DNA of 64,000 nucleotides from Candidatus Poribacteria bacterium. GTDB lineage: Bacteria > Poribacteria > WGA-4E > WGA-3G. A model generated the notes under the pieces. The model made no database searches, had not been told where the DNA came from, and saw only the letters and a program-made list of their open reading frames with translations. The position numbers and the translations under genes were made by a program. Every line of letters begins with the position of its first letter. Within the stretch, counting starts at the first letter, position 1. Location: assembly GCA_003635195.1 (NCBI GenBank), contig PYIY01000075.1:27608-91607 (forward strand), in the 5' to 3' direction. Shown one piece after another: positions 1 to 47,379 of the stretch.

Positions 1-28
1 GTTTGCCAAAGGTGTTGGTGTCGTTAAA

Positions 29-1570
29 ATGCGCTATGAACGTTTCAACGGTGTCACCACGGAAGCAGAATTGCTTGACTACAATGTTCCGAGAGGTGAA
101 GAATATCTCCCTTTGCAATACGGTAATATGTGGACATACAAATTGCAAAACGAGCATCAAGAAAAACCAATTATTGAAAAGTGCGAGGTTGTCGAAAATA
201 GCGAGCAGCCCCTGGATCGTGACTTTTTACGTTCCAGTCGTCCGAAAGTGATAAGGACTATACCTGATTTATCTGAAAAAGTTTCAATCGTTATAGAGGA
301 CATACGGGTTGGTTTTAGTGAAGCGCTGATGGGTGTTGATATTGCGTATGCAAGTGTACCCATAGGCGACCTTAAATGGATAGACGGCGGTAGAACCCTT
401 GTTATCCCGTTTAGTCGACCCCTATTACCTTCAAAAACCTATAGGCTTATATTGGCGGAAGGCTATAGGAATATGGCAGGCGTTGCGTTCCCAGAATATA
501 CGCTCACTTTCACAACCGAAGGTCCCGAACCGGTTACACCTACTTTTGTAGACACCACGCCTGTTTATGTAGCAGATATTGAAAAATTGGACCTCTCAAA
601 TGAACTGCTCTGCCGCGTTACTGTGAATCCTTCAGAGGGTTTTAACTTCCCTTATTACCTGTTCATCCCCCAAGGGATAGACTTGAACAAACCGGTTCAC
701 CTGCTCGTGGAACCCTGCAACACAGGGGTAAGTCGGACTCGTAAAAGTCTTGATAGAAAGACAAAGGCATTGGCTGAGGCATCTCATGCGACTGTCATCG
801 CCAAAAGACTGAGGGGCCCGTTGCTCGTGCCTGTTTTTCCGAGGCCCGGTGGAGATCAATGGCTCGTGCCTGTTTCTCCGAAACCCGACGAAGATCAATG
901 GCAAGCCTACACGCATGCCTTGGATAGAGACACCCTCCTGATTAAGGATGGCGACCTCAAGAGAATCGACTTGCAGCTCATCAATATGATTGCACATGCC
1001 CAAAGACTTTTGCGGCATAATAACGTAAAAGTGAATGAAAAAGTCTTCATGAACGGGTTTTCGGCTTCCGGGACGTTTGCAAATCGGTTTGCGATTTTAC
1101 ATCCAACGGTTGTCCGTGCGGTCGCAACTGGCGGCATCAATAGCATTCCGACCTTTCCGACAGAGCGTTGGGATGATGTCACGATGCGTTATCCAGTCGG
1201 CATCGCGGATGTAAAAGGGATCGCTGATATAGCATTTGATGAAAAGGCATATAAACGCGTTTCGCAGTACATCTACATGGGAGCTTTGGATGACAATGAT
1301 ACTATTCCGTATCGAGATGCCTACGATGCGGTGGATGCCGAGTTGGTCAAAAGCCTCATTGGAGCGAAAATGATGCCGGATCGGTGGGACATGAGTCAGT
1401 TAATATACAAGGCACTTGAGATTTCTGCGCAATTTGTTACCTACGAAAATACTGGGCATCAAATCAAGAGTGAGATGATTGATGATATTGTCGCTTTTTT
1501 CGAGGCGAATTCTGGCGACGAAATTGTTAAGATTGTTCCGTATCAATATCCGTCCTCGTCTGGAGAGTGA
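29..1570 (+). CDS. Ig-like (SbsA/Big_5-type) domain plus alpha/beta-hydrolase-like protein, possibly truncated at the 5-prime end by the window edge
   Basis: 513-aa ORF. The frame stays open from base 2 to the ATG at 29. An Ig-like segment ends in TYRLILAEGYRNMAGVAFPEYTLTFTT. The C-terminal half looks esterase-like (FMNGFSASGTFANRF, YENTGHQI). Assignment is from motif recall only. Confidence 0.5.
   Translation: MRYERFNGVTTEAELLDYNVPRGEEYLPLQYGNMWTYKLQNEHQEKPIIEKCEVVENSEQPLDRDFLRSSRPKVIRTIPDLSEKVSIVIEDIRVGFSEALMGVDIAYASVPIGDLKWIDGGRTLVIPFSRPLLPSKTYRLILAEGYRNMAGVAFPEYTLTFTTEGPEPVTPTFVDTTPVYVADIEKLDLSNELLCRVTVNPSEGFNFPYYLFIPQGIDLNKPVHLLVEPCNTGVSRTRKSLDRKTKALAEASHATVIAKRLRGPLLVPVFPRPGGDQWLVPVSPKPDEDQWQAYTHALDRDTLLIKDGDLKRIDLQLINMIAHAQRLLRHNNVKVNEKVFMNGFSASGTFANRFAILHPTVVRAVATGGINSIPTFPTERWDDVTMRYPVGIADVKGIADIAFDEKAYKRVSQYIYMGALDDNDTIPYRDAYDAVDAELVKSLIGAKMMPDRWDMSQLIYKALEISAQFVTYENTGHQIKSEMIDDIVAFFEANSGDEIVKIVPYQYPSSSGE
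824..901 (+). repeat. 39-bp tandem duplication inside the CDS (2 units)
   Basis: Units at 824-862 and 863-901 differ at only a few bases. They encode LVPVFPRPGGDQW and LVPVSPKPDEDQW. Confidence 0.8.
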
Positions 1571-1601: not shown

Positions 1602-1736
1602 ATTTCCAACCCTACCCTCTTCTCTTTCCTTCAAAGTCCACTCTTTTTTCAGAATTAAGCAACCGTTTTGCCCCTAAATTGCGTCACTATAGGTTGATAT
1701 GTCATGAATCAACTATCGCTTTCTGGGAGGTATCTG

Positions 1737-2930
1737 ATGAAAAACAACGATGTTGCACTTATTCAACGAGTTCTCGCTGGTGATGAAACCGCTTTTGCGG
1801 AACTGGTGAATAAATATCAAAAGCCGGTTCATACACTCGCTTGGCGAAAAATCGGGGATTTTCATATCGCCGAGGACATCACCCAGGAGGTCTTCCTGAA
1901 AGTGTATCAGAGACTCCATATCCTGAAAGATCCGAACCAGTTTTCTGGATGGCTTTATGTGATTACAGCGAACTTATGTGCCACATGGCTCCGCAAAAAA
2001 CGGATACAGACGCAACCGTTGAAGGACACAGAAACAACGATGATACAAGAAGATGCTTATTCTCGACACGTTGTAGAAGAGCGGATGAAAACCACAGCGG
2101 AATCACAACGCGAAGTCGTCAAAAAGCTGCTCGCGAAGCTAAAAGAGAGTGAACGCACAGTGATGGCACTCCACTACCTTGGCGAGATGACGGTTACGGA
2201 AATTAGCCGATTCTTAGGCGTGTCGGCGAGTACCATTAAAAGTCGTTTGAGACGTGCACGAAACCGTTTAAAAGAGGAGGAACCGATGATTAGAGAAGCA
2301 CTCGACCATTTTCAAATCACACCGAATCTTACAGAGAATATCATGTGCGAGATTTCGCGGTTGAAACCGGTTGCACCCTCTAACAGTAAGCCGTTAGTAC
2401 CGTGGGCAATCGGCGTTTCTACGGTAGCCGTCATCTTTTTGATGTTAGGCATAGGCAATCAGTATATGTCGCGTTTCCAAAAGCCGTATAGTTTCGACGC
2501 GCCATCAGAGATGACAGTCGAGTTGATTGAAGCACCCGTTGTGCTAAACCTTGAAGCCAAGCCGGATATTCGGACGCAATTTGGGAGTGTTCGGACACCG
2601 AGCGAGGGAAAGATCTCCAACCAACAGCCTAATGACGTTTCAGCTTCGGCTGCAGAAGCAGAAGCAGATGAGACAGTTAAAAACCACGCGCATTGGAAGT
2701 TGCCCAAAGCCGCAAAAGCGCGCTTCGGAAAAGGTGGGATTACTACAATTCAGTTTTCACCGGATGGCACCGTACTCGCAGTCGGTAGCAATATCGGGGT
2801 ATGGCTGTATGATGTGGAAACGGGTGAGGAGAAATCTTTGTTTGCCGGTGGAATGTGTCAAGCCCTCAGATTTTCGCCGGATGGCCGTTTCCTAACCAGC
2901 TCTTCTGCGGAGACGCTCATCCAATTGTAG
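1737..2930 (+). CDS. ECF-type RNA polymerase sigma-70 factor fused to a TM helix and the first WD40 repeats (N-terminal part of an interrupted fusion gene)
   Basis: GGGAGG at 1725-1730 lies 6 nt before ATG 1737. ECF region 2 and 4 motifs are present (DITQEVFLKVYQRL, ISRFLGVSASTIKSRLRRARNRL). A TM helix follows (LVPWAIGVSTVAVIFLMLGIG), then WD40 units (QFSPDGTVLAVGS..VWLYDVETG, RFSPDGRFLTSS). The ORF stops at TAG 2928-2930, in the same frame as the next ORF. Confidence 0.8.
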   Translation: MKNNDVALIQRVLAGDETAFAELVNKYQKPVHTLAWRKIGDFHIAEDITQEVFLKVYQRLHILKDPNQFSGWLYVITANLCATWLRKKRIQTQPLKDTETTMIQEDAYSRHVVEERMKTTAESQREVVKKLLAKLKESERTVMALHYLGEMTVTEISRFLGVSASTIKSRLRRARNRLKEEEPMIREALDHFQITPNLTENIMCEISRLKPVAPSNSKPLVPWAIGVSTVAVIFLMLGIGNQYMSRFQKPYSFDAPSEMTVELIEAPVVLNLEAKPDIRTQFGSVRTPSEGKISNQQPNDVSASAAEAEADETVKNHAHWKLPKAAKARFGKGGITTIQFSPDGTVLAVGSNIGVWLYDVETGEEKSLFAGGMCQALRFSPDGRFLTSSSAETLIQL

Positions 2931-2951
2931 GAGATCGCTACCGAGCGCGAA

Positions 2952-4769
2952 GTGCCGCTGATTGACTTGTACGGGGATGCTTCCGTATTGCGATTCTCTT
3001 CAGACGGGAAAACGCTGGTCGGTTTGAGTAGTTCGGGTGCAATTACGCGATTAAATATTGAGAACGGGAAAGGGAAAACAAAACACCTTAAAACTGGGTT
3101 GTTCGGGATCGGTCTCCTTAGTTCGGAGGATTTTAATGGTGTTTACGCGATGGCGAGCGATAAAATCGCGATCGGAAAACGGGACGGGATGATCCAGTTA
3201 TGGGACGCAGCAACCCGTAAAAAGTTATTGACGCTCAGAGGACACGTAGATTTGCCGCTTCAGCCATTAGATAAACCTGGGAATCCGCTGTTTAAAAAGA
3301 ATTGGGTCTTAGCTGTGGCGTTTTCGCCGGATGGCACCCGTCTCGCCAGTGGCAGCACAGATACGACAGTCCGATTGTCGGATACTACTGGTGACAGGGA
3401 TTCGATGACGCTGCAGAAACATACTGGACCGACAAATGTGCTGGCGTTTTCACCCGATGGAAAAATACTTGCCAGCGGCAGTACCGATAAAACAGTCCAA
3501 TTGTGGGATACCACTACCGGAGAACCCCTCACGACGCTCACCGGCCATATCAACGGTATTACGGCGTTAGCATTTTCACCCGATGGTCGTACACTCGTAA
3601 GCGGGAGTACGGATGGCACAATCCGATTCTGGCAGACAGCGACTGGGGTTCCAGCAGATACCCTTATCACTGGACACACACAATCCATAAAAGCGGCAAC
3701 CTTCCTTCAGGATCGTAGGGGCGAGGTCACCTCAAAGAAATCCGCAGAAACACCCAAGCAAAAACCCTCAAGCAAAAACCCCCTACTCGTCAGCGCGGCG
3801 TTTAACGGTGAAATTACCTTTTGGGATGTGGAAACAGCGCGGCGTAGGGACGAGGTGACCTCGCCCCTACGCCAAAATAGAGGACATCGGGATTGGTACT
3901 CAGCTTTAGCGTTTTCGCCGGATGGCACGAAACTCGTCAGTGCGGGGGCAGACGGTACGATAGTTTTCGGTGGGTTCCCTACTGGGTTCTCTGATACGAA
4001 GCCGGATAATCTAATTCGGTTGACGGATGTATCGACTGGAGACGAACTTGCGACGTTGCAGCGCGGGAGCAGCGAACTTATCTTTTCTCCTGACGATAGA
4101 ACTAAAACGGTGGCGACTCCTACGCGAGTTGGCAACATTCGCTTATGGAATACGGAAACAGGCGATGAATTGGTAATTCCTCTTAATGATGACCTGAAAC
4201 CCGGCTTCGGCGGCAATTTGCCAATGGTTTTGGCATTGGCGTTTTCGCCAGATGGTAGATGGCTTGTGAGTGGAACTACAGAAGGGGAAATCCGAATGTG
4301 GGACGTTGCGACCGGTGAAGCTTTGACCGTCTTTTCAGAACTGACAGAACCGATGGAACAAGAGCATCTGAGGCATATTTCGGCATTGGCGTTTTCACCA
4401 GACCGCGCCTTGCTCGCTGCGGGTACGCCGAGTCAACTCCATTTATGGAACGTGCGTACCGGTCATAAACTTTTTTCGGTTAGCACCGTGCATAAACGAG
4501 GCTGGCGGACATACCATGATTATCCAGGTCCGTTGGTGTTTTCACCAGATGGCGCAATTTTCGTCAGTGGACATGGCAGCGGTACAATCCAATTATGGGA
4601 TGCCAAGACTGGAGACAGAATCGCTGCGCTTGATGGGCATACGCAGCAAGTGAAGACGTTGAAATTTTCGCCTGACGGGGAAATGTTGGTTAGCACAGCG
4701 CAGGATGGCACAATCTTTTTGTGGGATTGGGATGAGGCTGTCACCGGTTCCGCCAACACCGACGAATAG
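2952..4769 (+). CDS. WD40-repeat beta-propeller protein (C-terminal part of the interrupted ECF-TM-WD40 gene)
   Basis: About 12 repeats of the type AFSPDG..L.SGS.D.T..LWD..TG. It is in frame with the ORF ending at 2930 (2931+21=2952). The GTG at 2952 is only the first possible start after the TAG. Confidence 0.8.
   Translation: MPLIDLYGDASVLRFSSDGKTLVGLSSSGAITRLNIENGKGKTKHLKTGLFGIGLLSSEDFNGVYAMASDKIAIGKRDGMIQLWDAATRKKLLTLRGHVDLPLQPLDKPGNPLFKKNWVLAVAFSPDGTRLASGSTDTTVRLSDTTGDRDSMTLQKHTGPTNVLAFSPDGKILASGSTDKTVQLWDTTTGEPLTTLTGHINGITALAFSPDGRTLVSGSTDGTIRFWQTATGVPADTLITGHTQSIKAATFLQDRRGEVTSKKSAETPKQKPSSKNPLLVSAAFNGEITFWDVETARRRDEVTSPLRQNRGHRDWYSALAFSPDGTKLVSAGADGTIVFGGFPTGFSDTKPDNLIRLTDVSTGDELATLQRGSSELIFSPDDRTKTVATPTRVGNIRLWNTETGDELVIPLNDDLKPGFGGNLPMVLALAFSPDGRWLVSGTTEGEIRMWDVATGEALTVFSELTEPMEQEHLRHISALAFSPDRALLAAGTPSQLHLWNVRTGHKLFSVSTVHKRGWRTYHDYPGPLVFSPDGAIFVSGHGSGTIQLWDAKTGDRIAALDGHTQQVKTLKFSPDGEMLVSTAQDGTIFLWDWDEAVTGSANTDE
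3714..3790 (+). repeat. Family C element copy C1, in frame inside the WD40 CDS
   Basis: Sequence cgtaggggcgaggtcacctcaaagaaatccgcagaaacacccaagcaaaaaccctcaagcaaaaaccccctac. The same GAAACACC.AGCAAAAAC..CCCTAC core occurs at 30216, 42798 and 59660. Confidence 0.7.
3843..3873 (+). repeat. GC-rich palindrome (GTAGGGACGAGG-tga-CCTCGCCCCTAC), in frame inside the WD40 CDS
   Basis: 3852-3871 is the exact reverse complement of 3714-3733 (20/20). The local hairpin has one mismatch. Confidence 0.8.
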
Positions 4770-4792
4770 CCCAATTAGGAGCGAGCATCATT

Positions 4793-5590
4793 GTGAGAAG
4801 TATATCCACCCTTTTGAAGGCAATTTATAATCTATTCGTTGTTTTGGGGCTATGTCCCATTTTGTTGTTTTTCAGTTGTTCTGGTGAAACGGATGTAACC
4901 TTAGAACCGGAGGACGCAGCTGAGGAGATAGCAGTTACGGGCGAAGATTTGTACGAGCAGACGTTCAAAGTGTTGCAGAAAGCGTACCCGCCCCCAATTT
5001 TAGATGATCGGTTTGAGACACTTCATCGAATGCGTTCGGATCCTATCTATTTTGCGTTTCTCAGAAGTGTTTATCCAGACGTGCTGCATCAAGATCTTAA
5101 AACGTTTATTGAAAATAGTCCGCCCGATGCTGAAGTATACGAAGTTGTTTTGCATAAACATTTCGGGAAACCTACAAGAACGGACATTGTTGTGGCGCAC
5201 CGTCTACACCAAAACTTCCAAAAGGGCAGGATTTTAGTCTATCATGGAACAGATAAAGACACAGTGATAGATGAAGTCCTTATCCCGGCTTTTAAGAAAG
5301 CCCCTATTTTCGGATGGTTTGTCGAACATGCGAAGGATAATGAAGAAGGTTTTGAGGCATTTGATGCGGATTTTCAACGATTGAGTCGAGACATTGAGTT
5401 GCGGAACATCATCAAGATAAACAAAATCCTTATGGGTCAAAGTAACGAACGGCAACGTGCCGATGAGTTCATCTGGCTTATGCTGCGGGAGCCGGTTTTG
5501 ATGGGAGAGGTACTTGATGGCTTTACTGATACTGAGATATTTCTTGAATGGCTCAAAGGGAAATTTCAGGAACCAGAGATAAAGTTCTAA
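4793..5590 (+). CDS. Hypothetical exported protein or lipoprotein
   Basis: 265-aa ORF with a GTG start. A hydrophobic N-terminus ends in LLFFSC. I recognised no family. Confidence 0.55.
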   Translation: MRSISTLLKAIYNLFVVLGLCPILLFFSCSGETDVTLEPEDAAEEIAVTGEDLYEQTFKVLQKAYPPPILDDRFETLHRMRSDPIYFAFLRSVYPDVLHQDLKTFIENSPPDAEVYEVVLHKHFGKPTRTDIVVAHRLHQNFQKGRILVYHGTDKDTVIDEVLIPAFKKAPIFGWFVEHAKDNEEGFEAFDADFQRLSRDIELRNIIKINKILMGQSNERQRADEFIWLMLREPVLMGEVLDGFTDTEIFLEWLKGKFQEPEIKF

Positions 5591-5610
5591 ACATCCCCAC
5601 CAATATCACG

Positions 5611-8600
5611 TTAAAGTTCCGCGCTGATTGTCATCTCTAAGCGGTGTTCAGGTTTGCGCTGCTTTGTGGAGAGCAGCCGGTAATTGAGGCGAAACAGTAG
5701 GTCTGTGAATTTTCGTAGCCTATAATCTGCTGTTGTGCGTACTTCGTGACTAATGCCCTCATAAAAAGTGTATTGCGCGAAGGGGATGCCACCGCTACTT
5801 TGACCGTAGCCGAGTTTATAGTTGAAAACGATGCGTCCTTTACCGATAAGCCTGTATGTGATTCGGTTTTCATAAGAGAAGGTGCGCGTTCTGGCTTCAG
5901 GTTCCTCGTCAAGTTGTTCCTCGTCGGTTGTCCGTTTATAGCCGCCAATACCGCTCCACTCCAGTGAGTTGTTCAGATCATATCGGAGGTTCAGTTCAGT
6001 TATCTGTTCAAGTTGACGGAGGTCTGATATAGGTGTAGCGGGAGGATCTCCCATCTTTTCGGTAGGATCGGTTCCCTGCGCGAGGTCCTCAAAATTGAAT
6101 TGGCTATACTTTTCATTTTCTCGACGTTGCTCCCAATTTGCTCTGACAGATAGGCGTTTCGTAGGGTTCACGGAGAAACTGACATCCCAGGTGTTGTGTT
6201 GTCTGTGGCGTTCTTGGTTATTAATTCGCTTGTTGAGCGTCTCTCCCATCCGGAAGTTAATTTCAAAACTGAATGCCGTTGAGGGGACAAATTCGAGTTG
6301 ATGATGTTGGTTCACCCGCCCAAAAAGTGTATCTGGCCCCTGTAGATTTTGGAGTAGATATAGAGAAACAGCGTCCTCTACCTCTTGTTCCTCTGTTAGC
6401 CAAAGTCGTGTTCGTCCTCTGAGTGCACTCAAAAACCACTCTAAACGGCTGTCAGCCATTGGCTCTCGGCTATCAGTAACAGGAGGTTTCTGGTTAACAG
6501 AAAACCCTCTTTGCTGATTGCTGACTGCTGACTGCTGATTGCTATCTTGCTGACTGCTGACTACTGAGGATTGACTGCTATTTCGTGTTGGACGCAAACT
6601 GTCGGGTTTCAGCATTGACTCACGTTGCTGCTGTTGCCGCGCTCTTGCACGCCGTGCGAAGTACTGACGCGGTTGAAAACGGATACGGAATTCCGCATCT
6701 ACCGCTGTTGTTGGCTTATCACCGACATTTTGGTAGATTTTGATGTAGGTGCCTTCCTCGGGATCTTCTACATAGTGCAGATCGTCCAATTTCACGTAAT
6801 AGCCTTCGCCAGGTTGAAGGAGAAGTCCGGTGTGTGGATGAATGTTGGTATAGATTTCGTGGCGTTGGCTTGTCAATTTTTTATCTAACTCGTAGGTGAG
6901 TTCTATGTCAATTGCCCGACTGAGTGGTGTCAATTGAAGGTTGATATCGGCGAGTTGCGTCGTCGTATCTGCGCCGATATCCGTGTGTGCCTTCAGCATT
7001 CGGCGAGCAAGGTTCGCACTCAGATTCACGCCGCCGCTGAGAAAAGATTTGTGTTGTGAAAAGAGACCGACTTTCCATGTTCGCGCTGTAGTGCTTCGCT
7101 GCCAATCGGATAGACCGATGGGTTGGTTGTCCACAGTGAGCAACGGCTCTTTCGCATAAGCCTCCTCAAGTTCGTAGCTGGTATTGACGGAGACCCAACT
7201 GAAATCAACGAGATTAATACGTCCAATCGCACGGTTCCGCTTTCGGTTGAGTGTCGCATTGCGTGCCTCGTTTGATTCCAATCTACCCAAAGTCCCAATA
7301 ATTCTGAACGGTCCGATCGGATAGGACAGGTTGCCCTCCTGTCGCGACTTTTGCTGCGATTCTGTCTGTGTTGAATCTTCACTCTCGACCCGTGAACTGC
7401 TCCGATAATCATCCCAACGGAAATTCGGCAACTTCCTTAGGAGCTGCGCGCCTTTAGAGGATGCCTTTTCTGACGCTATAGCTTCCTTCGGTCGTCCCGT
7501 TGTAAACCTGCTTTCTCGTGTGCGGGTAGCGATTACATTTCCACTGCCTGAACGCTGATTGAAGTTTACGCCCCAGTTGAAATTATCACGGATCGTTGCG
7601 TTGGTAGGAGTGGTTCTTTCAAATTGTTGGAAACCATCTGGTGAATCAGATCCTTCTGACTGACTGTTCTCACTGCGAAGCAGGCGTGCCGGCTGACGGC
7701 TGTTTTCCTCGCTCCTACCGACTCCGGCATTAACCGCGAACCAATCCGTCGGTATCACTCGGATGTCAAAGTTTGCGGTTCTTTCATCTCGGGCAATTTG
7801 TGAGTGTCGTGCAGTATCAAAGAGAAACGCATCATCAAAACCCTCTTTGGCGTATTGCGTTTCATAACGGGAACGGGAACGGTTACCACTTGATGCGCCG
7901 ACAGGTAGAAAATCGGCATCCATTGCGCGTATGTCAAAGTTTGTGTTCAATTTAGGTCGGAATTTCTCTGTCCATGTAGCGAAGTCCCAGTCCGCATAGC
8001 CGATCAGTTTCCACGCCTGACTCACCTCTTTACGGTCTACGGTGGAATAGGTGTTTTTATCAAGATTGCTGTAGGCGAGTTCACCTTCAATCCACGCTTT
8101 TTCGGTGATATTCACGCGACTTTCTACACCCCATACTGTATGTTTTTGCGGTGCCGTGAGGAGTGATCTGCCGTCTTCTTCAGGATCAAGGAGATTTTGA
8201 CGCAGTGCCTCCAGATCCGCGTCGCTGAGTTGGATTAAAGCCTGTTCAGGTTGGTTCAGGTCCGCCTCAACGGCATAAGAGGCACCGAGACTTATCCAGT
8301 CTCCGGGTAGTGTGAAGACGCTGCTGAGTCCGTAAAGATTCTGTTGATAGGCCCGTTCTTCAGGGATATATTCAAAGTCAATCCGAATTGTGTCGTTGCT
8401 TGTTATCAGGTGTTTGCTGTTGAATTCGACGATCGGATCCCCATATTCTCGGATGACGTAATCGTTGTTCTCACCGCGCCGCATCCGCTCGCCATTCAAC
8501 CAGACGATTTCACTCCCTGCTTTCACGATGACGTATTGCCCATCAACCGTAATCCGGTATTCGCTCCGTCCTTCTTCTCCACGAAGGACTAAACTTGTAG

Positions 8601-9486
8601 ACTGTCCTTTCGGGATAGCACTCGGAATGAGGTGAAATTTCGCCCACTTGAAATCGCCTTCGACTTGTACGCCTTCGAGCGCACGTGGGAAAAAGATAAA
8701 TTCCGAGGCACCGAGTGATCCCTCAAAGTCGCCTAATGTGCCTCTCATGTTCGGATGCGTGATACGAACCAATTTCTGATCAATGTCTTGGATATTCTCG
8801 GTTGTGCCTTCGGGTTGAATTGGTAAATCTTGGTCGGACAGCAGTGCAAGGACACTGATATTCTCGGAGACTTTACCCTCTACATTGACCCGGAGTTCCT
8901 GGTTCAGTGTCACGCCGCGCCCGCTGCCGACTGAGATACCGGATGTTTGACTTCCGGACACTTCTAATTGGCTATCGGGAGAATAGTTGTCAGTTGTCAG
9001 TTGTCGGTTGTCAGTTAAAAATCGGTTTGTCTCATCAGACTTCTCTTTCACTGATGACTCCTGCGCTGATGGAAACCGAAGGCTATCGGGGTTTTGCTCA
9101 CCGTAAAGGTCGCGTTTATAGACCTCTTTTATTGCGAAAGGCAGCGTGCGATAGGTTATCTTTAATCTATAGGGATCGGTAATGGAATCTTGCTTTACTA
9201 TAGTAATCTTTCCCGGATAGAAATCAATTTGATAGTCCACATTTCGGACAAGGGTTTTTCCGTTCGCCGCTACCAACTGTTCACTGTCAGGGAGAATCGG
9301 CGGGTACTTTACTGTAAATTCCAGTTCACTATCTTTCAGTTCAAAGGATTCTGTTTTCTGGAGAACGGAAAAGGTGGGAAGTTTGAGGACTTTAGTCTTG
9401 TCGTCAGCGGATTCTTGTGCCGGACTTTCGGGACAAGGTAGCAGGCACAAACAGAAGGAAACGAAAAAAAAGAGTCGGATAGGCAT
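5611..9486 (-). CDS. Very large secreted, outer-membrane beta-barrel-like protein (1291 aa), family unknown
   Basis: Signal peptide MPIRLFFFVSFCLCLLPCPESPAQ. The C-terminal two thirds are long, aromatic-rich and have an alternating pattern. Two low-complexity segments are encoded by family A repeat DNA. Confidence 0.6.
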   Translation of the reverse strand: MPIRLFFFVSFCLCLLPCPESPAQESADDKTKVLKLPTFSVLQKTESFELKDSELEFTVKYPPILPDSEQLVAANGKTLVRNVDYQIDFYPGKITIVKQDSITDPYRLKITYRTLPFAIKEVYKRDLYGEQNPDSLRFPSAQESSVKEKSDETNRFLTDNRQLTTDNYSPDSQLEVSGSQTSGISVGSGRGVTLNQELRVNVEGKVSENISVLALLSDQDLPIQPEGTTENIQDIDQKLVRITHPNMRGTLGDFEGSLGASEFIFFPRALEGVQVEGDFKWAKFHLIPSAIPKGQSTSLVLRGEEGRSEYRITVDGQYVIVKAGSEIVWLNGERMRRGENNDYVIREYGDPIVEFNSKHLITSNDTIRIDFEYIPEERAYQQNLYGLSSVFTLPGDWISLGASYAVEADLNQPEQALIQLSDADLEALRQNLLDPEEDGRSLLTAPQKHTVWGVESRVNITEKAWIEGELAYSNLDKNTYSTVDRKEVSQAWKLIGYADWDFATWTEKFRPKLNTNFDIRAMDADFLPVGASSGNRSRSRYETQYAKEGFDDAFLFDTARHSQIARDERTANFDIRVIPTDWFAVNAGVGRSEENSRQPARLLRSENSQSEGSDSPDGFQQFERTTPTNATIRDNFNWGVNFNQRSGSGNVIATRTRESRFTTGRPKEAIASEKASSKGAQLLRKLPNFRWDDYRSSSRVESEDSTQTESQQKSRQEGNLSYPIGPFRIIGTLGRLESNEARNATLNRKRNRAIGRINLVDFSWVSVNTSYELEEAYAKEPLLTVDNQPIGLSDWQRSTTARTWKVGLFSQHKSFLSGGVNLSANLARRMLKAHTDIGADTTTQLADINLQLTPLSRAIDIELTYELDKKLTSQRHEIYTNIHPHTGLLLQPGEGYYVKLDDLHYVEDPEEGTYIKIYQNVGDKPTTAVDAEFRIRFQPRQYFARRARARQQQQRESMLKPDSLRPTRNSSQSSVVSSQQDSNQQSAVSNQQRGFSVNQKPPVTDSREPMADSRLEWFLSALRGRTRLWLTEEQEVEDAVSLYLLQNLQGPDTLFGRVNQHHQLEFVPSTAFSFEINFRMGETLNKRINNQERHRQHNTWDVSFSVNPTKRLSVRANWEQRRENEKYSQFNFEDLAQGTDPTEKMGDPPATPISDLRQLEQITELNLRYDLNNSLEWSGIGGYKRTTDEEQLDEEPEARTRTFSYENRITYRLIGKGRIVFNYKLGYGQSSGGIPFAQYTFYEGISHEVRTTADYRLRKFTDLLFRLNYRLLSTKQRKPEHRLEMTISAEL
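6492..6583. repeat. Family A element, half copy (A1), inside the 1291-aa CDS
   Basis: aaaaccctcttt is followed by the 7-nt units gctgatt gctgact gctgact gctgatt gctat. This parallels aaacctcttt aactgat aactgat aactgat aactattt at 16317-16353. Confidence 0.65.
8983..9025. repeat. Family A arm (A2) inside the 1291-aa CDS
   Basis: The sequence atagttgtcagttgtcagttgtcggttgtcagttaaaaatcgg is the same arm seen at 22315 and 58652. Confidence 0.7.
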
Positions 9487-9502: not shown

Positions 9503-9632
9503 AATGGCTATCGGCTATCAGCAGTCAGCAAAGACGCAAGCGTTACAGAACGGCTTTTTTCTTTACCGGCAGCCGAAAGGTTTTTCATGCCTCGCAGTGA
9601 GAGAAAACCGCCCTGAGAGCCGATGGCTATTT
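9503..9632. repeat. Family A element (A3, subtype with AAAGACGCAAGC core)
   Basis: The arms atggctatcggctatcagcagtcagc and gagccgatggctat flank aaagacgcaagcgttacagaac..ccgaaaggtttttcatgcctcgcagtgagagaaaaccgccctga. It is near-identical in layout to 20908-21024 and overlaps the stop codon of the NHL gene. Confidence 0.8.
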
Positions 9633-10781
9633 TTGACGGAAGACTTGGAACACCTTTATATCGTTCGCTTCCGCGTCACTCACAAAGACACGTCCACTTT
9701 TCGAGACGGCGATGCCTATCGGTTCAAGGAGTGTAGAGGTGGTAAATTCTGTGATGCTCTTACCATCAGGAGCGAAGACTTGGATACGTCGATTACCGCT
9801 GTCCGTTACGTAAAGATAATTCCAGTCATCTAAGGCGATGCACTTCGGTTCTCGCAGCTGCCCGAGTCTGTCTCCTTCACTGCCCCAAGCACTGATAGGA
9901 TTGCCGCTAAAGTCGTATTTTTTGATGAGATGGTTGCCTGTATCGACGACGTAAACACTCCCGTGGGTATCAACACCGAGGTCTGTAGGATTCCAGAGTT
10001 GTTCTGTACCACTCCCGAAGCTGCCGCGTGCGACAACTGACACCCCCGCGACGTTGAATTCAATCCAGCGATGATTGCCGGTATCTACAATATACACCTC
10101 GCCATTGCGTCCGATACCGATGCCTTCGGGCTGGTCTAACAGGGTGCCTTCAATACTCTGGCTAAGCGGATAAAAAATTTGATCAATGAAATTGCAGTAT
10201 TGTACCCGATTGTTCCGCGTGTCTACGACATAGAGGTGGCGGTAACTCCGTTGGAAACTCAATGCTATATCTGATGGATGATCAAATTCGCCTGTCTGCC
10301 ACCCACGTCCTCCGAATTCGGTGATGTAATTTCCAGCGGCATCAATAACTTGTACCCGATTGTTCCCGGCATCGGCGATGTAGATTCTATCTGATTCATC
10401 TATTGCGAGTCCCAAGGGCATCTGAAATTCACCCGCGCCTTGTCCGGCAGTGCCGAGGGTTTTGACGTAGCGAATACCGACGATAGGGAGCGGTTCGCGT
10501 TCACGGTTCGATGGGAGAATTTCAATCTGACCCTTCCCTGTAACAGGTGGGGCTCCCGGCGGCGCAACTTCACCTTCGGGGACGGCACAACTCAAACAAA
10601 GGGAAACCAAGAGAAAAAAACAGAAGGAGTAGTTAACAGTGGCCAGTGGCCAGTAACCGGTAAAGAAGCTTCCCTTCTGGTAACTGGTAAGCGGGGTCCC
10701 GATATTAGCCGCGTTGCACCTTAAATTTGAAAACGAACGTCGTTTGTTGGTCATTGAACTCACTTGTGACTCCCGGCACAA
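9627..10781 (-). CDS. NHL-repeat beta-propeller lipoprotein (start codon uncertain)
   Basis: Six NHL-type units are present (IYIADAGNNRVQVID, LYVVDTRNNRVQY, VYIVDTGNHRWIEF, VYVVDTGNHLIKKYD, LYVTDSGNRRIQVF, VFVSDAEANDIKVF). There is a lipobox LCLSC. The only ATG starts (10781, 10754) overlap the upstream gene by 77 or 50 nt. Confidence 0.75.
   Translation of the reverse strand: MCRESQVSSMTNKRRSFSNLRCNAANIGTPLTSYQKGSFFTGYWPLATVNYSFCFFLLVSLCLSCAVPEGEVAPPGAPPVTGKGQIEILPSNREREPLPIVGIRYVKTLGTAGQGAGEFQMPLGLAIDESDRIYIADAGNNRVQVIDAAGNYITEFGGRGWQTGEFDHPSDIALSFQRSYRHLYVVDTRNNRVQYCNFIDQIFYPLSQSIEGTLLDQPEGIGIGRNGEVYIVDTGNHRWIEFNVAGVSVVARGSFGSGTEQLWNPTDLGVDTHGSVYVVDTGNHLIKKYDFSGNPISAWGSEGDRLGQLREPKCIALDDWNYLYVTDSGNRRIQVFAPDGKSITEFTTSTLLEPIGIAVSKSGRVFVSDAEANDIKVFQVFRQK
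10631..10692. repeat. Family A-like arm pair (A4) within the 5-prime end of the NHL ORF
   Basis: The sequence agttaacagtggccagtggccagtaaccggtaaagaagcttcccttctggtaactggtaagc has the same CCAGT-type units as 17077-17104. Confidence 0.55.
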
Positions 10782-28697: not shown

Positions 28698-28789
28698 TGG
28701 CGGAGAGAGTGGGATTCGAACCCACGGTACTGCAAAACAGCACACATGATTTCCAGTCATGCCAGTTCAACCAACTCCTGCATCTCTCC
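28698..28789 (-). tRNA. tRNA-Ser(GGA), CCA encoded
   Basis: The acceptor stem is GGAGAGA/UCUCUCC. The anticodon loop is CUGGAAA between CAUGA/UCAUG. It has a long variable arm and the T loop GGUUCGAAUCC. Confidence 0.9.
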
Positions 28790-28795
28790 GTTTTA

Positions 28796-28920
28796 TAGTT
28801 GTCAGTTAGAGGAAGTTAACAGTTGTCAGTACGATTTTTTCTGCAAAAAAAATCTTTCAGTTCTCAGTTAAGAGACTTTGGAACTATCGAAAACCTCTTG
28901 TAACTGATAACTGTTAACTA
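28796..28920. repeat. Family A element (A12) between two tRNA genes
   Basis: Pattern tagttgtcagtt..cagttgtcagt..ttttttctgcaaaaaaaatctttcagttctcagttaagagactttggaactatcgaaaacctcttgtaactgataactgttaacta. Confidence 0.8.
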
Positions 28921-28927
28921 TCATGTA

Positions 28928-29000
28928 TGGAGCAGACGGGATTTGAACCCGTGACCTCATCCGTGCGAGGGATGCACTCTCCCAACTGAGCTACTGCCCC
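28928..29000 (-). tRNA. tRNA-Ala(CGC)
   Basis: It starts GGGGCAGUAGCUCAG and has G3:U70. The anticodon loop is CUCGCAC, and no CCA is encoded. Confidence 0.9.
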
Positions 29001-29088
29001 AGAGTTTATAAAATTTATCGGGTTTACAAAACCCTCCTACAGCATCTTGCGATGACTGATTATCGTTCACCTTGAAAATATCAAAAAA

Positions 29089-29173
29089 CGGAGAGAGTGG
29101 GATTCGAACCCACGGTGACTTGCGCCACAACAGTTTTCGAGACTGTCCAGTTCAACCACTCCTGCATCTCTCC
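29089..29173 (-). tRNA. tRNA-Ser(CGA)
   Basis: The acceptor stem is GGAGAGA, the anticodon loop is CUCGAAA, and it has a long variable arm. Confidence 0.9.
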
Positions 29174-29251
29174 TTATGATGCGTCATAACGATAGCGTCG
29201 TATACCAGAGCCATTCAATTTGAAGTCGCGATTCGGAGATCGCTCCTACTT

Positions 29252-29710
29252 TTACAGTTTATGGCGGCGTCCCTGAAAAAAGGATTTGAGCAGCGCACTG
29301 CTCTCATCTGCTAACACACCACTTACCAATTCAACCCGATGGTTTAGCCGTTCATCTTGGAGAATATTATAGAGTGTGCCGGCTGCCCCAGATTTCGGGT
29401 CTGCCGTGCCGTAAACCACCTTCGGGATGCGTGCTAAGACGATAGCCCCTGCACACATTGGGCACGGTTCTAACGTCACATAAAGCGTTGTGTCTGTAAA
29501 TCGCCAGTTCCCAATTTTTTCGGATGCCGCTTGTATAACAAGCATTTCTGCATGAGCGATAGGGCTACCAGACTGTTCACGCAGGTTGGAGGCTTCCGCG
29601 ATGCGGACCTCGTTGCTAACGAGTACTGCCCCAACGGGTACTTCACCGTTCTCGGCGGCTTGCTTCGCTAGCTCAAGTGCGTGTCGCATCCAGAAAAGAT
29701 CGCTATCCAA
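29252..29710 (-). CDS. tadA: tRNA adenosine(34) deaminase
   Basis: It has the deaminase motifs HAEMLVI and LEPCPMCAGAI. The TTG at 29710 or the ATG at 29689 could be the start. Confidence 0.9.
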   Translation of the reverse strand: MDSDLFWMRHALELAKQAAENGEVPVGAVLVSNEVRIAEASNLREQSGSPIAHAEMLVIQAASEKIGNWRFTDTTLYVTLEPCPMCAGAIVLARIPKVVYGTADPKSGAAGTLYNILQDERLNHRVELVSGVLADESSALLKSFFQGRRHKL

Positions 29711-29735
29711 GTTATGTCCAACAAATGGCTTATGA

Positions 29736-29809
29736 AGCGCCTGAGAGGATTCGAACCCCTGGCCTTCTGATCCGTAGTCAGATGCTCTAATCCACTGAGC
29801 TACAGGCGC
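29736..29809 (-). tRNA. tRNA-Arg(ACG)
   Basis: It starts GCGCCUGUAGCUCAGUGGAUUAGAGC and the anticodon loop is CUACGGA. It ends 26 nt upstream of the tadA ORF. The 3-prime boundary is accurate to about 1 nt. Confidence 0.85.
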
Positions 29810-29885
29810 GTATTGTACGGTATTGAAGCGTTAGGCAGCTACGCCTTGCCTATACGTTTTTGTGTCTGATTTGTTGCTTTAAAGA

Positions 29886-29970
29886 CGGAGAGGGTGGGAT
29901 TCGAACCCACGATGGCTTGCGCCATAACTGCTTAGCAGGCAGTCCAGTTCAACCACTCCTGCACCTCTCC
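29886..29970 (-). tRNA. tRNA-Ser(GCU)
   Basis: The acceptor stem is GGAGAGG, the anticodon loop is CUGCUAA, and it has a long variable arm. Confidence 0.9.
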
Positions 29971-29974
29971 ATAA

Positions 29975-30062
29975 TGGCGGTGGGAGTAGGATTCGAACCC
30001 ACGATGGCTTGCGCCATAACGGTTTTCAAGACCGCCGCTTTCGTCCACTCAGCCATCCCACC
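29975..30062 (-). tRNA. tRNA-Ser(UGA), CCA encoded
   Basis: The acceptor stem is GGUGGGA/UCCCACC and the anticodon loop is CUUGAAA. The variable arm and T arm are almost identical to those of Ser(GCU). It lies 4 nt from the neighbouring tRNA. Confidence 0.85.
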
Positions 30063-30561: not shown

Positions 30562-31233
30562 CTACCGAATTTCTTGGTTCCACTCGAGTGGTTCATTTCG
30601 CAAGTATGGGAGCAGCATACCCTGAAGCTGCCGGTGTGCATGGTGCAAGTGTGCTTTAACCGTGCCCTCCGACCTGTTTAGCAGGGCTGCGATCTCTTTG
30701 ATCGCGAGTTCACGTCGGTGCCGCAAATTAAAGACCCGACGCTGACCGGGTGGGAGTTTCCTCACTGCCTTTCGGATGATAAGCCCAAGTTCCTTCTCAT
30801 CAAGAAGTCTCTCAGGAGACGGATAGGAGTCGGTCATTTTTAGCATCTCGTCCGCTTCAAGGGGTAATTCTTCAAACGTAAGCACCTTATCGCGGTTACG
30901 TTGACGCTGAAAATCGATGCTGCAGTTGATAGCGATCCGGTAGATCCAACTATAAAATGCGGAGCCGCCTTTGAAGTTGGGTAGGGCATTGAACGCTTTC
31001 AGGAAAACCTCTTGGCAGAGATCTTTTGCTGTTTCTTGATCGCGAACCCGTTGGTACATGAGATTGTAAATTTTCTTTTGATATTTAAGCATAAGAGGAT
31101 TAAAAGCCTCTGTGTCACCGTTCTGGAACTGATTGACAAGTGCTTTCTCATCAATCTGTTCAAGTTCGACATCTGTGTAAAAAGTGGTGTTTTTTGGAGT
31201 AAAGGTCATGTCTATTTTCTCCGTAGAGCGCAA
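30562..31233 (-). CDS. ECF-type RNA polymerase sigma-70 factor
   Basis: Region 2 shows DLCQEVFLKAFNALPNF and YSWIYRIAINCSIDFQRQR. Region 4 shows IKEIAALLNRSEGTVKAHLHHAHRQL. No anti-sigma gene lies downstream. Confidence 0.9.
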   Translation of the reverse strand: MRSTEKIDMTFTPKNTTFYTDVELEQIDEKALVNQFQNGDTEAFNPLMLKYQKKIYNLMYQRVRDQETAKDLCQEVFLKAFNALPNFKGGSAFYSWIYRIAINCSIDFQRQRNRDKVLTFEELPLEADEMLKMTDSYPSPERLLDEKELGLIIRKAVRKLPPGQRRVFNLRHRRELAIKEIAALLNRSEGTVKAHLHHAHRQLQGMLLPYLRNEPLEWNQEIR

Positions 31234-46113: not shown

Positions 46114-47379
46114 TTAAAAATTGCGATTATGCGTCCTCTGACAAACAACGATGTTTTCTTCGTGCATCGTTGTGGAGGTTTCACCTGCAACGTTGGAAGG
46201 GCTGTTCTTCTTCGGCATCCGCTTGTTTGGTATGTTTCTGACGATGGTCGCCTTATGCGTAAAACCGTGCTGACGAAAGGCATCAACGATAAATTCGTCG
46301 GTCGGCAGCATAACCTCTTTGACTCGGCGATTGCCTACGACATAACAGATTGTAGCATGTCGTGAAAGTACTTGAACTATTGAATTGATGCTACACCTAA
46401 GGTCAATGTAAAATGCTGACACCTCCCGCGCTCGCTTTTCATCGACTAAACGGATTTTGTCAATAGCGGGTGATATTGGAGAATCCTTCAATATTTTTTT
46501 TGAATGCTGTCCGCCCATTGCGAGTTTGTCAATTTTGCGAGCATTCGGCAAACCTATCCATTCCGCTGCCAGCCGCGAATATTGTCCGTACGCCACCGTG
46601 GTCTGTGAATCTCCATACGGCGGAGATGTAATCACGACATCATAGCCTCCGAGAGGTCGAGGCATTGGGAGTTCACCTTGGACTGTGTTTGCTTCGGATA
46701 CCAATACCTCAACGTTTTTCCGTTTTTCGAGGAACGCTGCTAAGCCGTGCCGATTTCTGCTGAGTTTCTTGCTAAAGATACCGAACACGTCAGGTTTGAA
46801 GCCTTCAAGTTTTTCGACAGGCATGCGATATAATTTAAACTCTCCGTTCCGCGTATACGATACCTCTCGAACCGTCTCTGAAAACGCGACCAGTATGAAG
46901 TTTCGGACGGCTTCATCTTCTACCTTGTTAATCCAAGCGCGTAGATACGCGAGATATCTAATAACTTCTTCGGAGAACCAATACGCAAGGTTCGGAATCT
47001 CAGGAATCGGAGCGTCAGGGACCCTGCCTTCTTGGAATTCAACCTGAAAGAGATCATCATTTAACTTGCCGAGTGTTTCATCTAAAGTCGATGGACAAAT
47101 CTGTGTTGACTTAGCAGTTGCTATCAGGCGTACGAGAGGGTTAATATCACATCCAACACTGTGCATGCCGCATAGGGATGCTTCAACCAGCGAGGTGCCG
47201 GTGCCACAATAGGGGTCAAGCAGCCATCCACCGTCTGCGCCATACGTTTTAAGAAGTTTCCGCGCAATTTGCGGAATCATCATTGCCGGGTACGTGTGGA
47301 AGCAGTGCGTGTATTCTTTGGTATCAGATTCTCGAAAGTCCCACGATTCGTCTTTATATTTTAGATTGTCGGTGCTCAT
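46114..47379 (-). CDS. Type II DNA methyltransferase (exocyclic amino MTase, N4-C or N6-A; SPPY motif)
   Basis: Motif I is LLDPYCGTGTSLVEA and motif IV is VVITSPPYGD. Its start overlaps the upstream REase stop as ATGA. Confidence 0.8.
   Translation of the reverse strand: MSTDNLKYKDESWDFRESDTKEYTHCFHTYPAMMIPQIARKLLKTYGADGGWLLDPYCGTGTSLVEASLCGMHSVGCDINPLVRLIATAKSTQICPSTLDETLGKLNDDLFQVEFQEGRVPDAPIPEIPNLAYWFSEEVIRYLAYLRAWINKVEDEAVRNFILVAFSETVREVSYTRNGEFKLYRMPVEKLEGFKPDVFGIFSKKLSRNRHGLAAFLEKRKNVEVLVSEANTVQGELPMPRPLGGYDVVITSPPYGDSQTTVAYGQYSRLAAEWIGLPNARKIDKLAMGGQHSKKILKDSPISPAIDKIRLVDEKRAREVSAFYIDLRCSINSIVQVLSRHATICYVVGNRRVKEVMLPTDEFIVDAFRQHGFTHKATIVRNIPNKRMPKKNSPSNVAGETSTTMHEENIVVCQRTHNRNF

Follow-up and report, generated by a model that had tools for sequence, protein, structure and literature searches.

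A sigma-TM-WD40 gene of Candidatus Poribacteria interrupted by a single in-frame TAG codon

The interrupted gene and its surroundings

The window, i.e. the whole 64-kb stretch of poribacterial DNA analysed here, contains near its beginning two open reading frames, 1704-2930 and 2952-4769 (Table 1). An earlier note on this DNA, made from the sequence, had described them as lying in one frame with a single TAG codon in between, and both their ORFs and the sequence bear this out: TAG 2928-2930 is the sole stop codon separating them, and reading through it yields the junction ..SAETLIQL(TAG)EIATEREVPLI.. given there. Translation begins at ATG 1737 and not at ATG 1704, because the former is preceded at 6 nt by the Shine-Dalgarno motif GGGAGG and orthologues begin with MKN(D/N)D at this place. 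The read-through product from ATG 1737 has 1010 amino acids. Its natural stop codon is TAG 4767-4769, where orthologues end. As the chance that a random frame of 612 codons with the same composition stays open is about 1.6e-14, the open frame behind the premature stop is no chance arrangement.

Table 1. Features of the interrupted gene and its neighbourhood (window coordinates)
Feature	Position	Strand	Remarks
Upstream tandem paralogue, sigma-TM-Big_5-type fusion	2..1570	+	3' part, about 520 codons; cut by the window start
Promoter-like block	1651..1689	+	conserved upstream of the gene and its paralogues
Shine-Dalgarno motif GGGAGG	1725..1730	+	6 nt upstream of ATG 1737; GAGG kept in 12/12 aligned upstream regions
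Translated part of the interrupted gene	1737..2927	+	397 codons: sigma2, sigma4, linker, TM helix, juxtamembrane segment, WD repeats 1-2
sigma2	1803-2003	+	Pfam Sigma70_r2, 51.8 bits, above cutoff
sigma4	2115-2270	+	Pfam Sigma70_r4_2, 50.7 bits, above cutoff
TM helix	2397-2456	+	single hydrophobic helix, aa 221-240 with ATG 1737 as codon 1
Juxtamembrane segment	2463-2585	+	highly conserved; followed by a low-complexity spacer, then by WD repeats
WD repeats 1-2	2733-2927	+	WD40 part starts before the stop
Premature TAG	2928..2930	+	A at 2929 in place of G in the invariant Trp398 codon TGG
Untranslated remainder	2931..4769	+	612 intact codons, WD repeats 3-14, and stop; WD40 Pfam 242 bits; collinear with orthologues to the last residue
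GTG, only candidate restart codon	2952..2954	+	21 nt after the stop
27-nt palindrome GTAGGGACGAGGTGACCTCGCCCCTAC	3844..3870	.	in-frame insert in a propeller loop
Downstream neighbour	4793..5590	+	265 aa, hydrophobic N-terminus, no Pfam match; also in loci L001 and L019

The N-terminal part of the protein also matches the Pfam model Sigma70_ECF (32.3 bits, above cutoff) and the NCBIfam model TIGR02937 (104.6 bits against a cutoff of 42.9). With sigma2 and sigma4 as its only sigma regions and a family-wide HMM match above the curated cutoff, it belongs to the ECF (group 4) sigma-70 factors; none of the subfamily-level NCBIfam models exceeds its own cutoff for this sigma. A conserved linker of 40 amino acids joins sigma4 to the TM helix, whose hydropathy reaches its maximum, 2.18, at aa 221-239. 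The adjoining juxtamembrane segment is so strongly conserved that it hints at a candidate functional site. WD40 repeats (PF00400) form six stretches in the C-terminal half alone, and 14 repeats can be counted in the read-through protein, which makes two seven-bladed propellers. In the AlphaFold model of the closest orthologue (P0001), aa 335-987 fold into about 54 beta-strands, with pLDDT mostly 70-90 over aa 335-990 and low confidence in the sigma/TM part; PF00400 repeats and propeller strands together identify a WD40 beta-propeller. We infer that the WD40 domain lies outside the membrane and the sigma in the cytoplasm. Sigma, single TM helix and C-terminal domain within one polypeptide, the last presumably on the external side, present an IutY-like architecture, and conservation of the module extends over 323 representative clusters. 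The earlier description of the intact gene, about 1010 amino acids with an ECF sigma, one TM helix and WD40 repeats, thus agrees with Pfam, hydropathy, repeat count and homologues of 970-1026 amino acids.

The 27-nt palindrome in the propeller loop is not alone in the gene: half of it recurs at 3716-3727, with extra codons after it. The palindrome is present in some orthologues and absent from others, and more copies occur in other poribacterial loci.

Alignment of 12 upstream regions, taken from WD40-, Big_5- and BNR-type paralogues at seven loci, revealed a block of invariant columns in front of the gene. Its elements are AGAATT (1651-1656), a -35-like GCAACC (1659-1664) and a -10-like GCGTCAC (1681-1687). 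The spacer between the latter two is 16 nt, or 17 nt if the -10 element is CGTC (1682-1685). Judged by sequence conservation, the block may be an ECF-type autoregulated promoter. The upstream paralogue is 88% identical to aa 456-975 of a 978-aa sigma fusion at 2899-5835 of locus L001, and the downstream neighbour, which starts 23 nt past the gene, is probably co-transcribed with it. The tandem array of sigma fusions and the genes downstream of it are conserved in synteny. Poribacteria have such arrays, in which an ECF sigma is joined via a strongly conserved TM/juxtamembrane module to interchangeable external WD40, Big_5-type or BNR/sortilin-like domains; the members form a large modular family with a similar promoter-like motif in front of each gene, and the sigma-TM-WD40 architecture is very common in the phylum. 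Literature on Poribacteria mentions abundant WD40 domains but not the sigma fusion.

A unique nonsense change without downstream decay

Trp398 is the "WD" position at the end of WD repeat 2. The column occupied by the stop codon is Trp in 29/29 homologues and, in a second alignment, in 35/35. The comparison of orthologues for TGG, set beforehand as a check, was run on 19 loci of relatives (two TARA scaffolds, 16 loci of poribacterial GTDB species representatives and one JGI contig): all 19 have TGG at this codon and none has TAG. Because TGG is found in every one of them, the A at 2929 of the window is the result of a G-to-A transition, the one-base TGG to TAG change that the earlier note had suspected. 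Its supporting argument, that every other repeat of the protein has Trp at the equivalent position, stands for about 10 of the 14 repeats; the rest have S, T, L or Y. Evidence from orthologues is much stronger than that from repeats within the protein.

More than 100 full-length homologues from Candidatus Poribacteria (970-1026 amino acids, 64-89% identical) cover 98-99% of the read-through product, and those with a name are entered as Candidatus Poribacteria sigma-70 family sigma factors. Frames are open throughout in the relatives' loci wherever the locus spans the gene. Even the relative that shares a 90%-identity cluster with the 408-aa truncated product is full length, with 987 amino acids. 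The 408-aa product is recorded on one contig only, the 605-aa product has no record in the contig index, and scans of species-representative genomes and JGI metagenomes with degenerate patterns for other truncated alleles gave TGG only. The locus thus has a premature stop where all orthologues have a sense codon, as expected of a nonsense pseudogene.

Several candidates were discarded. L018, a 1.5-kb JGI contig, at first resembled a truncated allele; its apparent stop lies 55 codons past the Trp and repeat 3 is joined out of frame to repeat 11, so that it is most likely a repeat misassembly of a short contig. Family members of 405-481 amino acids are not WD40 stubs, as their C-terminal sequences are other than WD40. 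A methylation-linked deamination hotspot was considered in view of a gene for an MvaI/BcnI-family endonuclease in the window, but the mutated site is outside CCWGG/CCSGG.

The 612 codons after TAG 2928-2930 contain no second lesion, be it frameshift or stop. In this part dN/dS is 0.37 between the window gene and its relatives and 0.34 between two intact relatives. Branch-specific synonymous and non-synonymous changes number 27/22 for the window gene, 26/18 and 29/20 for the intact relatives, and unique changes at otherwise invariant columns (2 and 5) are inside the range of the orthologues. Neither relaxed constraint nor further lesions, by which pseudogenes are recognised, are thus found downstream, and the three constraint tests (unique changes, dN/dS and branch counts) exclude a long-standing pseudogene. 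Since the downstream codons are intact and constrained as in orthologues, the change either happened very recently, or it is a variant in the population or an error of the consensus. An intact and constrained downstream half is equally compatible with its continued use.

The consensus-error reading, under which TAG is an error of consensus or assembly, or a minority single-nucleotide variant picked by the assembler, and the real gene is intact, seems to us unlikely, though worth keeping in mind. The 93-kb contig that holds the window belongs, judged by its closest relatives, to an uncultured poribacterium; both truncated products (408 and 605 aa) are limited to that one contig, and a single difference with no second lesion and normal downstream constraint is the picture to be expected of an error or a very rare variant. 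However, consensus substitution errors are rare in assemblies, real mutations are most commonly G-to-A (C-to-T), a stop codon can be reached from TGG by two different single changes, the gene has 20 TGG codons, and multi-copy families tolerate such losses.

The perfectly preserved downstream frame could also be explained if TAG 2928-2930 were decoded, by a suppressor tRNA, pyrrolysine-type recoding or programmed read-through, and the full-length protein were made. We give this hardly any credence. TAG terminates 10 of the 38 long ORFs in the window, including the gene itself at the orthologous C-terminus; no other gene of the window is interrupted by an in-frame TAG; a tRNA with CUA anticodon is absent among the six tRNAs in the window; and relatives encode the Trp by TGG, none of them having TAG. 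Other neighbouring pairs of ORFs in the same frame are separate genes (RecR and an M28 peptidase, GatB and the MvaI/BcnI endonuclease). The frames, terminators and tRNAs of the 64-kb window give no sign of stop-codon reassignment or read-through, and genome-wide TAG recoding was rejected on the grounds of the sole interrupted frame, TAG as a common terminator and no suppressor tRNA in the window.

Possible consequences of the truncation

Reinitiation of translation within a short distance of a stop codon is an established form of translational coupling in bacteria. The earlier note had listed, as one of three options, two functional halves: a membrane-anchored sigma with a stub, and a WD40 protein with its restart at GTG 2952. 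In a fuller form of this reading, the stop created two working genes or is kept as such, the sensor-less sigma would be constitutively processed and active, and the WD40 protein would arise by termination-reinitiation. The downstream frame is indeed intact and constrained, a GTG 21 nt past the stop is in the range of ribosome reinitiation, and the mutation itself creates AGGAG (2929-2933), the only Shine-Dalgarno-like motif; truncated IutY, moreover, is active without signal (PMC8999054). Nevertheless, the distance of 18 nt from AGGAG to GTG 2952 is too long for use, and no promoter-like or terminator signal above chance was found inside the gene; on these grounds an independent second gene was rejected. 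The restarted product would have neither TM helix nor signal peptide and would thus remain in the cytoplasm, though its domain is normally outside, and it would miss blades 1-2 of the first propeller. Split forms are found in 0 of the 19 relatives' loci and 0 of the more than 100 homologues, and such shorter members of the family as were found have other domains instead of WD40 stubs. Two working genes are therefore very improbable.

The other two options of the earlier note, a recent pseudogene and a sequencing or population variant, fit the single lesion and the lack of decay better. In our opinion, it is quite probable that a poribacterial sigma-TM-WD40 gene has been interrupted by a recent nonsense G-to-A change at 2929, or by a variant within the population, with loss of the sensor. 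We regard it as a young pseudogene or strain variant of the ordinary kind, no new coding trick.

In the course of events that we propose, the transition at 2929 turned TGG of the invariant Trp398, with which WD repeat 2 ends, into TAG. As TAG is a normal terminator in this genome, translation would end after residue 397 and leave a membrane-anchored sigma with an external stub of 157 amino acids, the sensor being gone. The event is presumably very young, or a variant inside the population, since none of the 612 codons downstream is damaged and they still bear the signature of purifying selection. The truncated sigma may be either inert or deregulated, by analogy; deregulation is conceivable because comparable sigma/anti-sigma fusions turn active on losing their external part. 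The systems used for this analogy are IutY (ECF243) and SCO4117 (ECF52), both described in PMC8999054. The other paralogues of the array probably make up for the loss. That the truncation is a selected functional allele, its membrane-anchored sigma being processed and active without signal like truncated IutY, is an improbable extension of this analogy; if true, a sponge-symbiont lineage would have hard-wired one branch of a large tandem family of sigma factors with TM helix and variable sensor that share a promoter. In a related and likewise improbable reading at the level of the family, many so-called eukaryote-like WD40 proteins of Poribacteria would be external sensors of such one-polypeptide ECF devices.

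The stop codon alone is of little weight: it marks a young nonsense allele of one gene in a family with many copies. The main practical lesson is that the annotated 408-aa and 605-aa proteins are best read as one interrupted gene. More useful is the array context, which links to transmembrane signalling a part of the much-discussed load of WD40 "eukaryote-like proteins" in sponge symbionts. Besides this, the locus offers a natural sensor-less allele usable to test how fused sigma factors are switched on.

Relationship to known sigma factors

Among solved structures, that of Bacillus subtilis SigW (PDB 5wuq; E=1e-24 over aa 9-180) is closest to the sigma core. The match spans both sigma2 and sigma4, and SigW is the best NCBIfam match too, yet below the equivalog cutoff. 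SigW, however, is a stand-alone protein of 187 amino acids with a separate anti-sigma, RsiW, and has neither TM helix nor WD40 extension.

The earlier note had linked the architecture mainly to planctomycetes, in agreement with literature on the group ECF57, formerly ECF01-Gob (PMC8999054, PMC7826278, PMC5766207), although the present gene is poribacterial. Planctomycetes have several ECF57 members each, 5.3 per genome, and these consist of an ECF core and a long C-terminal WD40-like extension, with no separate anti-sigma (PMC8999054, PMC7826278, PMC5766207). A C-terminal WD40-like extension is present here as well (242 bits, 14 repeats, propeller strands), and at the level of sequence the architecture appears to resemble ECF57. 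A signature of ECF57 is a pair of conserved cysteines, of which sigma2 and sigma4 hold one each (PMC8999054). Cys81 in sigma2 is invariant in the wider family (48/48) and in close homologues (35/35). Position 153 in sigma4 is Cys in 25/48 members of the wider family and in 3/35 close homologues, and Val in the window gene. The window gene hence differs from planctomycete ECF57 in its poribacterial origin, in Val for Cys in sigma4 and in the interrupting stop.

ECF sigma factors tethered by TM helices to an external domain are also known from actinobacteria. In SCO4117 of Streptomyces coelicolor (ECF52) the sigma is joined via TM helices to an external domain, and proteolytic activation has been proposed (PMC8999054). 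SCO4117 and the groups ECF48 and ECF53 share this tethered layout with the poribacterial protein. In these actinobacterial proteins there is a carbohydrate-binding domain as well as an anti-sigma-like segment of the zinc-finger type, whereas the linker of the window protein has only about 40 amino acids and no recognisable anti-sigma domain.

IutY of Pseudomonas putida (ECF243) is a sigma/anti-sigma fusion freed by regulated intramembrane proteolysis, and loss of most of its external part leads to signal-independent activity (PMC8999054). As in the poribacterial protein, a single chain combines an ECF sigma on the cytoplasmic side, one TM helix and a C-terminal part outside that serves for sensing. 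This external part is, however, FecR-like and not WD40, with no detectable similarity past the ECF core, and IutY is released by Prc/RseP, while proteolysis in the poribacterial family is only putative. Of the systems compared, IutY is the best model for the possible effect of truncation at codon 398.

A nonsense codon at an invariant tryptophan

Two open reading frames, 1704-2930 (408 aa) and 2952-4769 (605 aa), lie in one frame and are separated by a sole stop codon, TAG 2928-2930, just as the earlier note had described. No other pair of long same-frame, same-family segments in the 64-kb window is split by a single stop; the remaining same-frame neighbour pairs (RecR/M28 peptidase and GatB/MvaI/BcnI endonuclease) are unrelated adjacent genes. 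ATG 1737 is the true start, as GGGAGG is found 6 nt 5' of it and all homologues begin with MKN(D/N)D at that start; ATG 1704 shows no conservation. Pfam domains Sigma70_r2, Sigma70_r4_2 and Sigma70_ECF are matched within residues 1-200, followed by a single hydrophobic helix (aa 221-240, numbered from ATG 1737) and by WD repeats, 14 of which can be laid out. WD40 matches begin upstream of the stop, and a strong one (242 bits) is located downstream. The N-terminus belongs to the ECF superfamily (NCBIfam TIGR02937, 104.6 bits versus a cutoff of 42.9), with no NCBIfam equivalog above its own cutoff; its nearest solved structure is B. subtilis SigW.

With the read-through product as query, the search retrieved over 100 proteins, 970-1026 aa long and sharing 64-89% identity across 98-99% of the query, the named ones being annotated sigma-70 family sigma factors of Candidatus Poribacteria. 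The column of the stop is tryptophan in 29/29 and 35/35 homologues in two alignments. The closest DNA relative found, a TARA metagenome scaffold with ~92% identity, reads TTG TGG GAG versus TTG TAG GAG in the window, and a second TARA scaffold, also with TGG, encodes a 987-aa protein from the same 90%-identity cluster as the 408-aa product. A degenerate pattern accepting TGG or TAG was scanned against the species-representative genome collection and JGI metagenomes, yielding 16 poribacterial loci from the former and one JGI contig, all with TGG. In fetched loci that span the gene, the reading frame stays open for ~990-1020 codons. Tryptophan in all aligned homologues and TGG in all relatives' loci examined establish a G-to-A transition at 2929 that is unique to the window's contig; the proposed TGG-to-TAG change at a conserved repeat tryptophan is confirmed, including by the suggested comparison of orthologues.

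In the AlphaFold model of P0001, the closest orthologue, propeller strands cover aa 335-987 (pLDDT mostly 70-90), and Trp398 lies in strand 394-399 of the second blade; the sigma/TM part of the model, of low confidence, was set aside. In WD repeat 5 the equivalent residue is serine (TCG, 3378-3380), as in about half of close orthologues (VRLSD vs VRLWD), so that the repeat tryptophan is dispensable in some blades, yet it is invariant at the stop position. In a related gene on a 1509-bp JGI contig (L018), WD repeat 3 is joined out of frame to repeat 11, which most likely reflects an assembly error by collapse of repeats near the end of the contig.

Recoding, restart and age of the stop

Recoding of TAG is ruled out by its use as terminator of 10 of the 38 long ORFs in the window and by the absence of a CUA anticodon among the window's six tRNA genes. 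The natural stop of the interrupted gene is itself TAG (4767-4769), the same endpoint as in two aligned orthologues. The six tRNA genes form a cluster at 28698-30062 (-): tRNA-Ser x4 (GGA, CGA, GCT, TGA), tRNA-Ala (CGC) and tRNA-Arg (ACG).

An independent second half would have to be translated from GTG 2952, 21 nt past the stop. Its sole Shine-Dalgarno-like motif, AGGAG 2929-2933, was created by the lesion itself (TGGGAG to TAGGAG) and precedes the GTG by 18 nt; the gene body shows no conspicuous sigma-70-type promoter or terminator. The restarted product (MPLIDLYGDAS..) would lack a signal peptide, the TM helix and repeats 1-2, although the WD40 domain normally sits beyond the TM helix. The gene represents neither recoding nor a new gene arrangement.

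Three tests show that constraint past the stop is not relaxed. Window-unique substitutions at columns invariant among the 15 closest homologues (two before the stop, five after) fall inside the range of intact orthologues. Past the stop, pairwise dN/dS is 0.37 for the window compared with each of the TARA relatives and 0.34 for these two intact relatives compared with one another; ahead of the stop it is 0.09-0.15 in all pairs. Single-nucleotide changes in the downstream half number 27 synonymous and 22 non-synonymous on the window branch, compared to 26/18 and 29/20 in the intact relatives. About 3.7% of possible substitutions there would create a stop and none occurred; for a random frame as long as this one, the probability of being open is 1.6e-14. 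Divergence from the nearest sampled relative amounts to dS ~0.2-0.25. Therefore the stop is much younger than this divergence, or unfixed in the population, or a consensus error. The interrupted ECF sigma/WD40 gene is real and was correctly interpreted. It belongs to a gene family that is large, redundant and already annotated, and the TAG in this one member is a nonsense allele of an ordinary, recent kind, or else a variant or error.

The sigma-TM family and its surroundings

The family context is a more useful by-product than the stop codon. Its members stand in tandem arrays and share a module of the first ~290 residues (1737-2606 in the window; also in proteins P0123-P0272), composed of the sigma core, a 40-aa linker (EEPMIREAL..FQITPNLTENIM.EISRLKPVAPS), the TM helix and a juxtamembrane segment (SRFQKPYSFDA.SEMTVELIEAP.VLNLE.KPD.RTQ), the last conserved more strongly than the sensors. 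The module is highly identical among neighbouring paralogues, while the external parts vary (WD40 propellers, a Big_5-containing domain, BNR/sortilin-like repeats). When 1.84 billion representative proteins were searched with the module, 323 clusters matched at E<=1e-30; the matches listed are mostly 400-1377 aa long, with a few shorter fragments, and the module is N-terminal in nearly all. Sigma2 and sigma4 are present in 48/48 scanned members and WD40 in 21/48, the remainder having other domains (Sortilin/BNR, DUF6242, Big_5) or none recognised. The C-terminal domains of the family are interchangeable. At 30562-31233 (-) lies a 223-aa sigma factor of ECF type that stands alone and is only distantly related to the fused proteins, scoring 67 bits against their N-terminal module.

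Upstream of all paralogues examined (in the window and at loci L001, L003, L007, L009, L015, L017 and L019), regardless of external domain, lies a block of AGAATT, a -35-like G(C/A)(A/G)A(C/T)(C/T), a -10-like GCGTCA and a GAGG Shine-Dalgarno sequence. The -35-like to -10-like gap is ~16 nt, or 17 nt with the -10 element read as CGTC. Such ubiquity suggests a common ECF-type promoter, possibly autoregulated.

Features of the window around the interrupted gene
Feature	Position	Strand	Remarks
Upstream paralogue, C-terminal ~520 aa (3' part)	2-1570	+	Big_5-type sigma-TM fusion, 88% identical to 978-aa L001 protein; cut by window start
Promoter-like block	1651-1689	+	AGAATT, GCAACC-type -35, GCGTCAC-type -10; conserved upstream of paralogues
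Palindrome, half copy	3716-3727		extra codons then run to ~3783
Palindrome, full copy	3844-3870		in frame in gene 1737-4769
265-aa neighbour	4793-5590	+	23 nt 3' of sigma gene; hydrophobic lipoprotein-like N-terminus; no Pfam match; syntenic in relatives
1291-aa neighbour	5611-9486	-	no Pfam match; syntenic in relatives
NHL-repeat propeller protein	9627-10781	-	next after 1291-aa neighbour
MvaI/BcnI-family restriction endonuclease	47376-48065	-	immediately downstream of gatB

The coding sequence also contains, in frame, a 27-nt palindrome, GTAGGGGCGAGGTNACCTCGCCCCTAC, encoding RRGEVTSPLRQ-like loops. Further copies occur at L001 (7991, 8075, 10818 and 11754) and at L006, L014 and L016 (three each). 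Its presence varies among otherwise collinear orthologues, it is found in other genes of poribacterial loci as well, and in the proteins P0012 and P0045 another insert (..VRLGNRTYE..) occupies its site. The palindrome has the look of a small mobile element that propeller loops tolerate, and it recalls the Rickettsia palindromic elements.

Possible mode of action and relation to described ECF groups

As the sigma factor must be cytoplasmic and a single TM helix follows, the WD40 propellers would face outward. Judging from the analogues IutY (ECF243), a fused sigma/anti-sigma protein, and SCO4117 (ECF52), activation would probably proceed via cleavage freeing sigma from the membrane (PMC8999054). 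With the TAG allele, sigma and the TM helix would remain, followed by a stub of 157 aa ending inside blade 2. Sigma may then stay tethered and silent, or it may turn signal-independent, as C-terminally truncated IutY does (PMC8999054). The stop may also have a polar effect on the conserved 265-aa gene that follows.

Abundant WD40 "eukaryote-like" domains are described in Poribacteria (PMC3909097), and their fusion to sigma factors is unreported in the Poribacteria literature searched, that paper included. The nearest described kind is planctomycete ECF57 (formerly ECF01-Gob), in which an ECF core carries WD40-like extensions at the C-terminus, a genome has several copies, and sigma2 and sigma4 each contain a conserved cysteine (PMC8999054, PMC7826278, PMC5766207). 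Here the sigma2 position is an invariant cysteine; the sigma4 position is cysteine in only 25/48 members of the wider family and valine in the interrupted gene. The planctomycete link drawn in the earlier note agrees with the literature on ECF57. The gene would be a candidate member of ECF57, which it clearly resembles.
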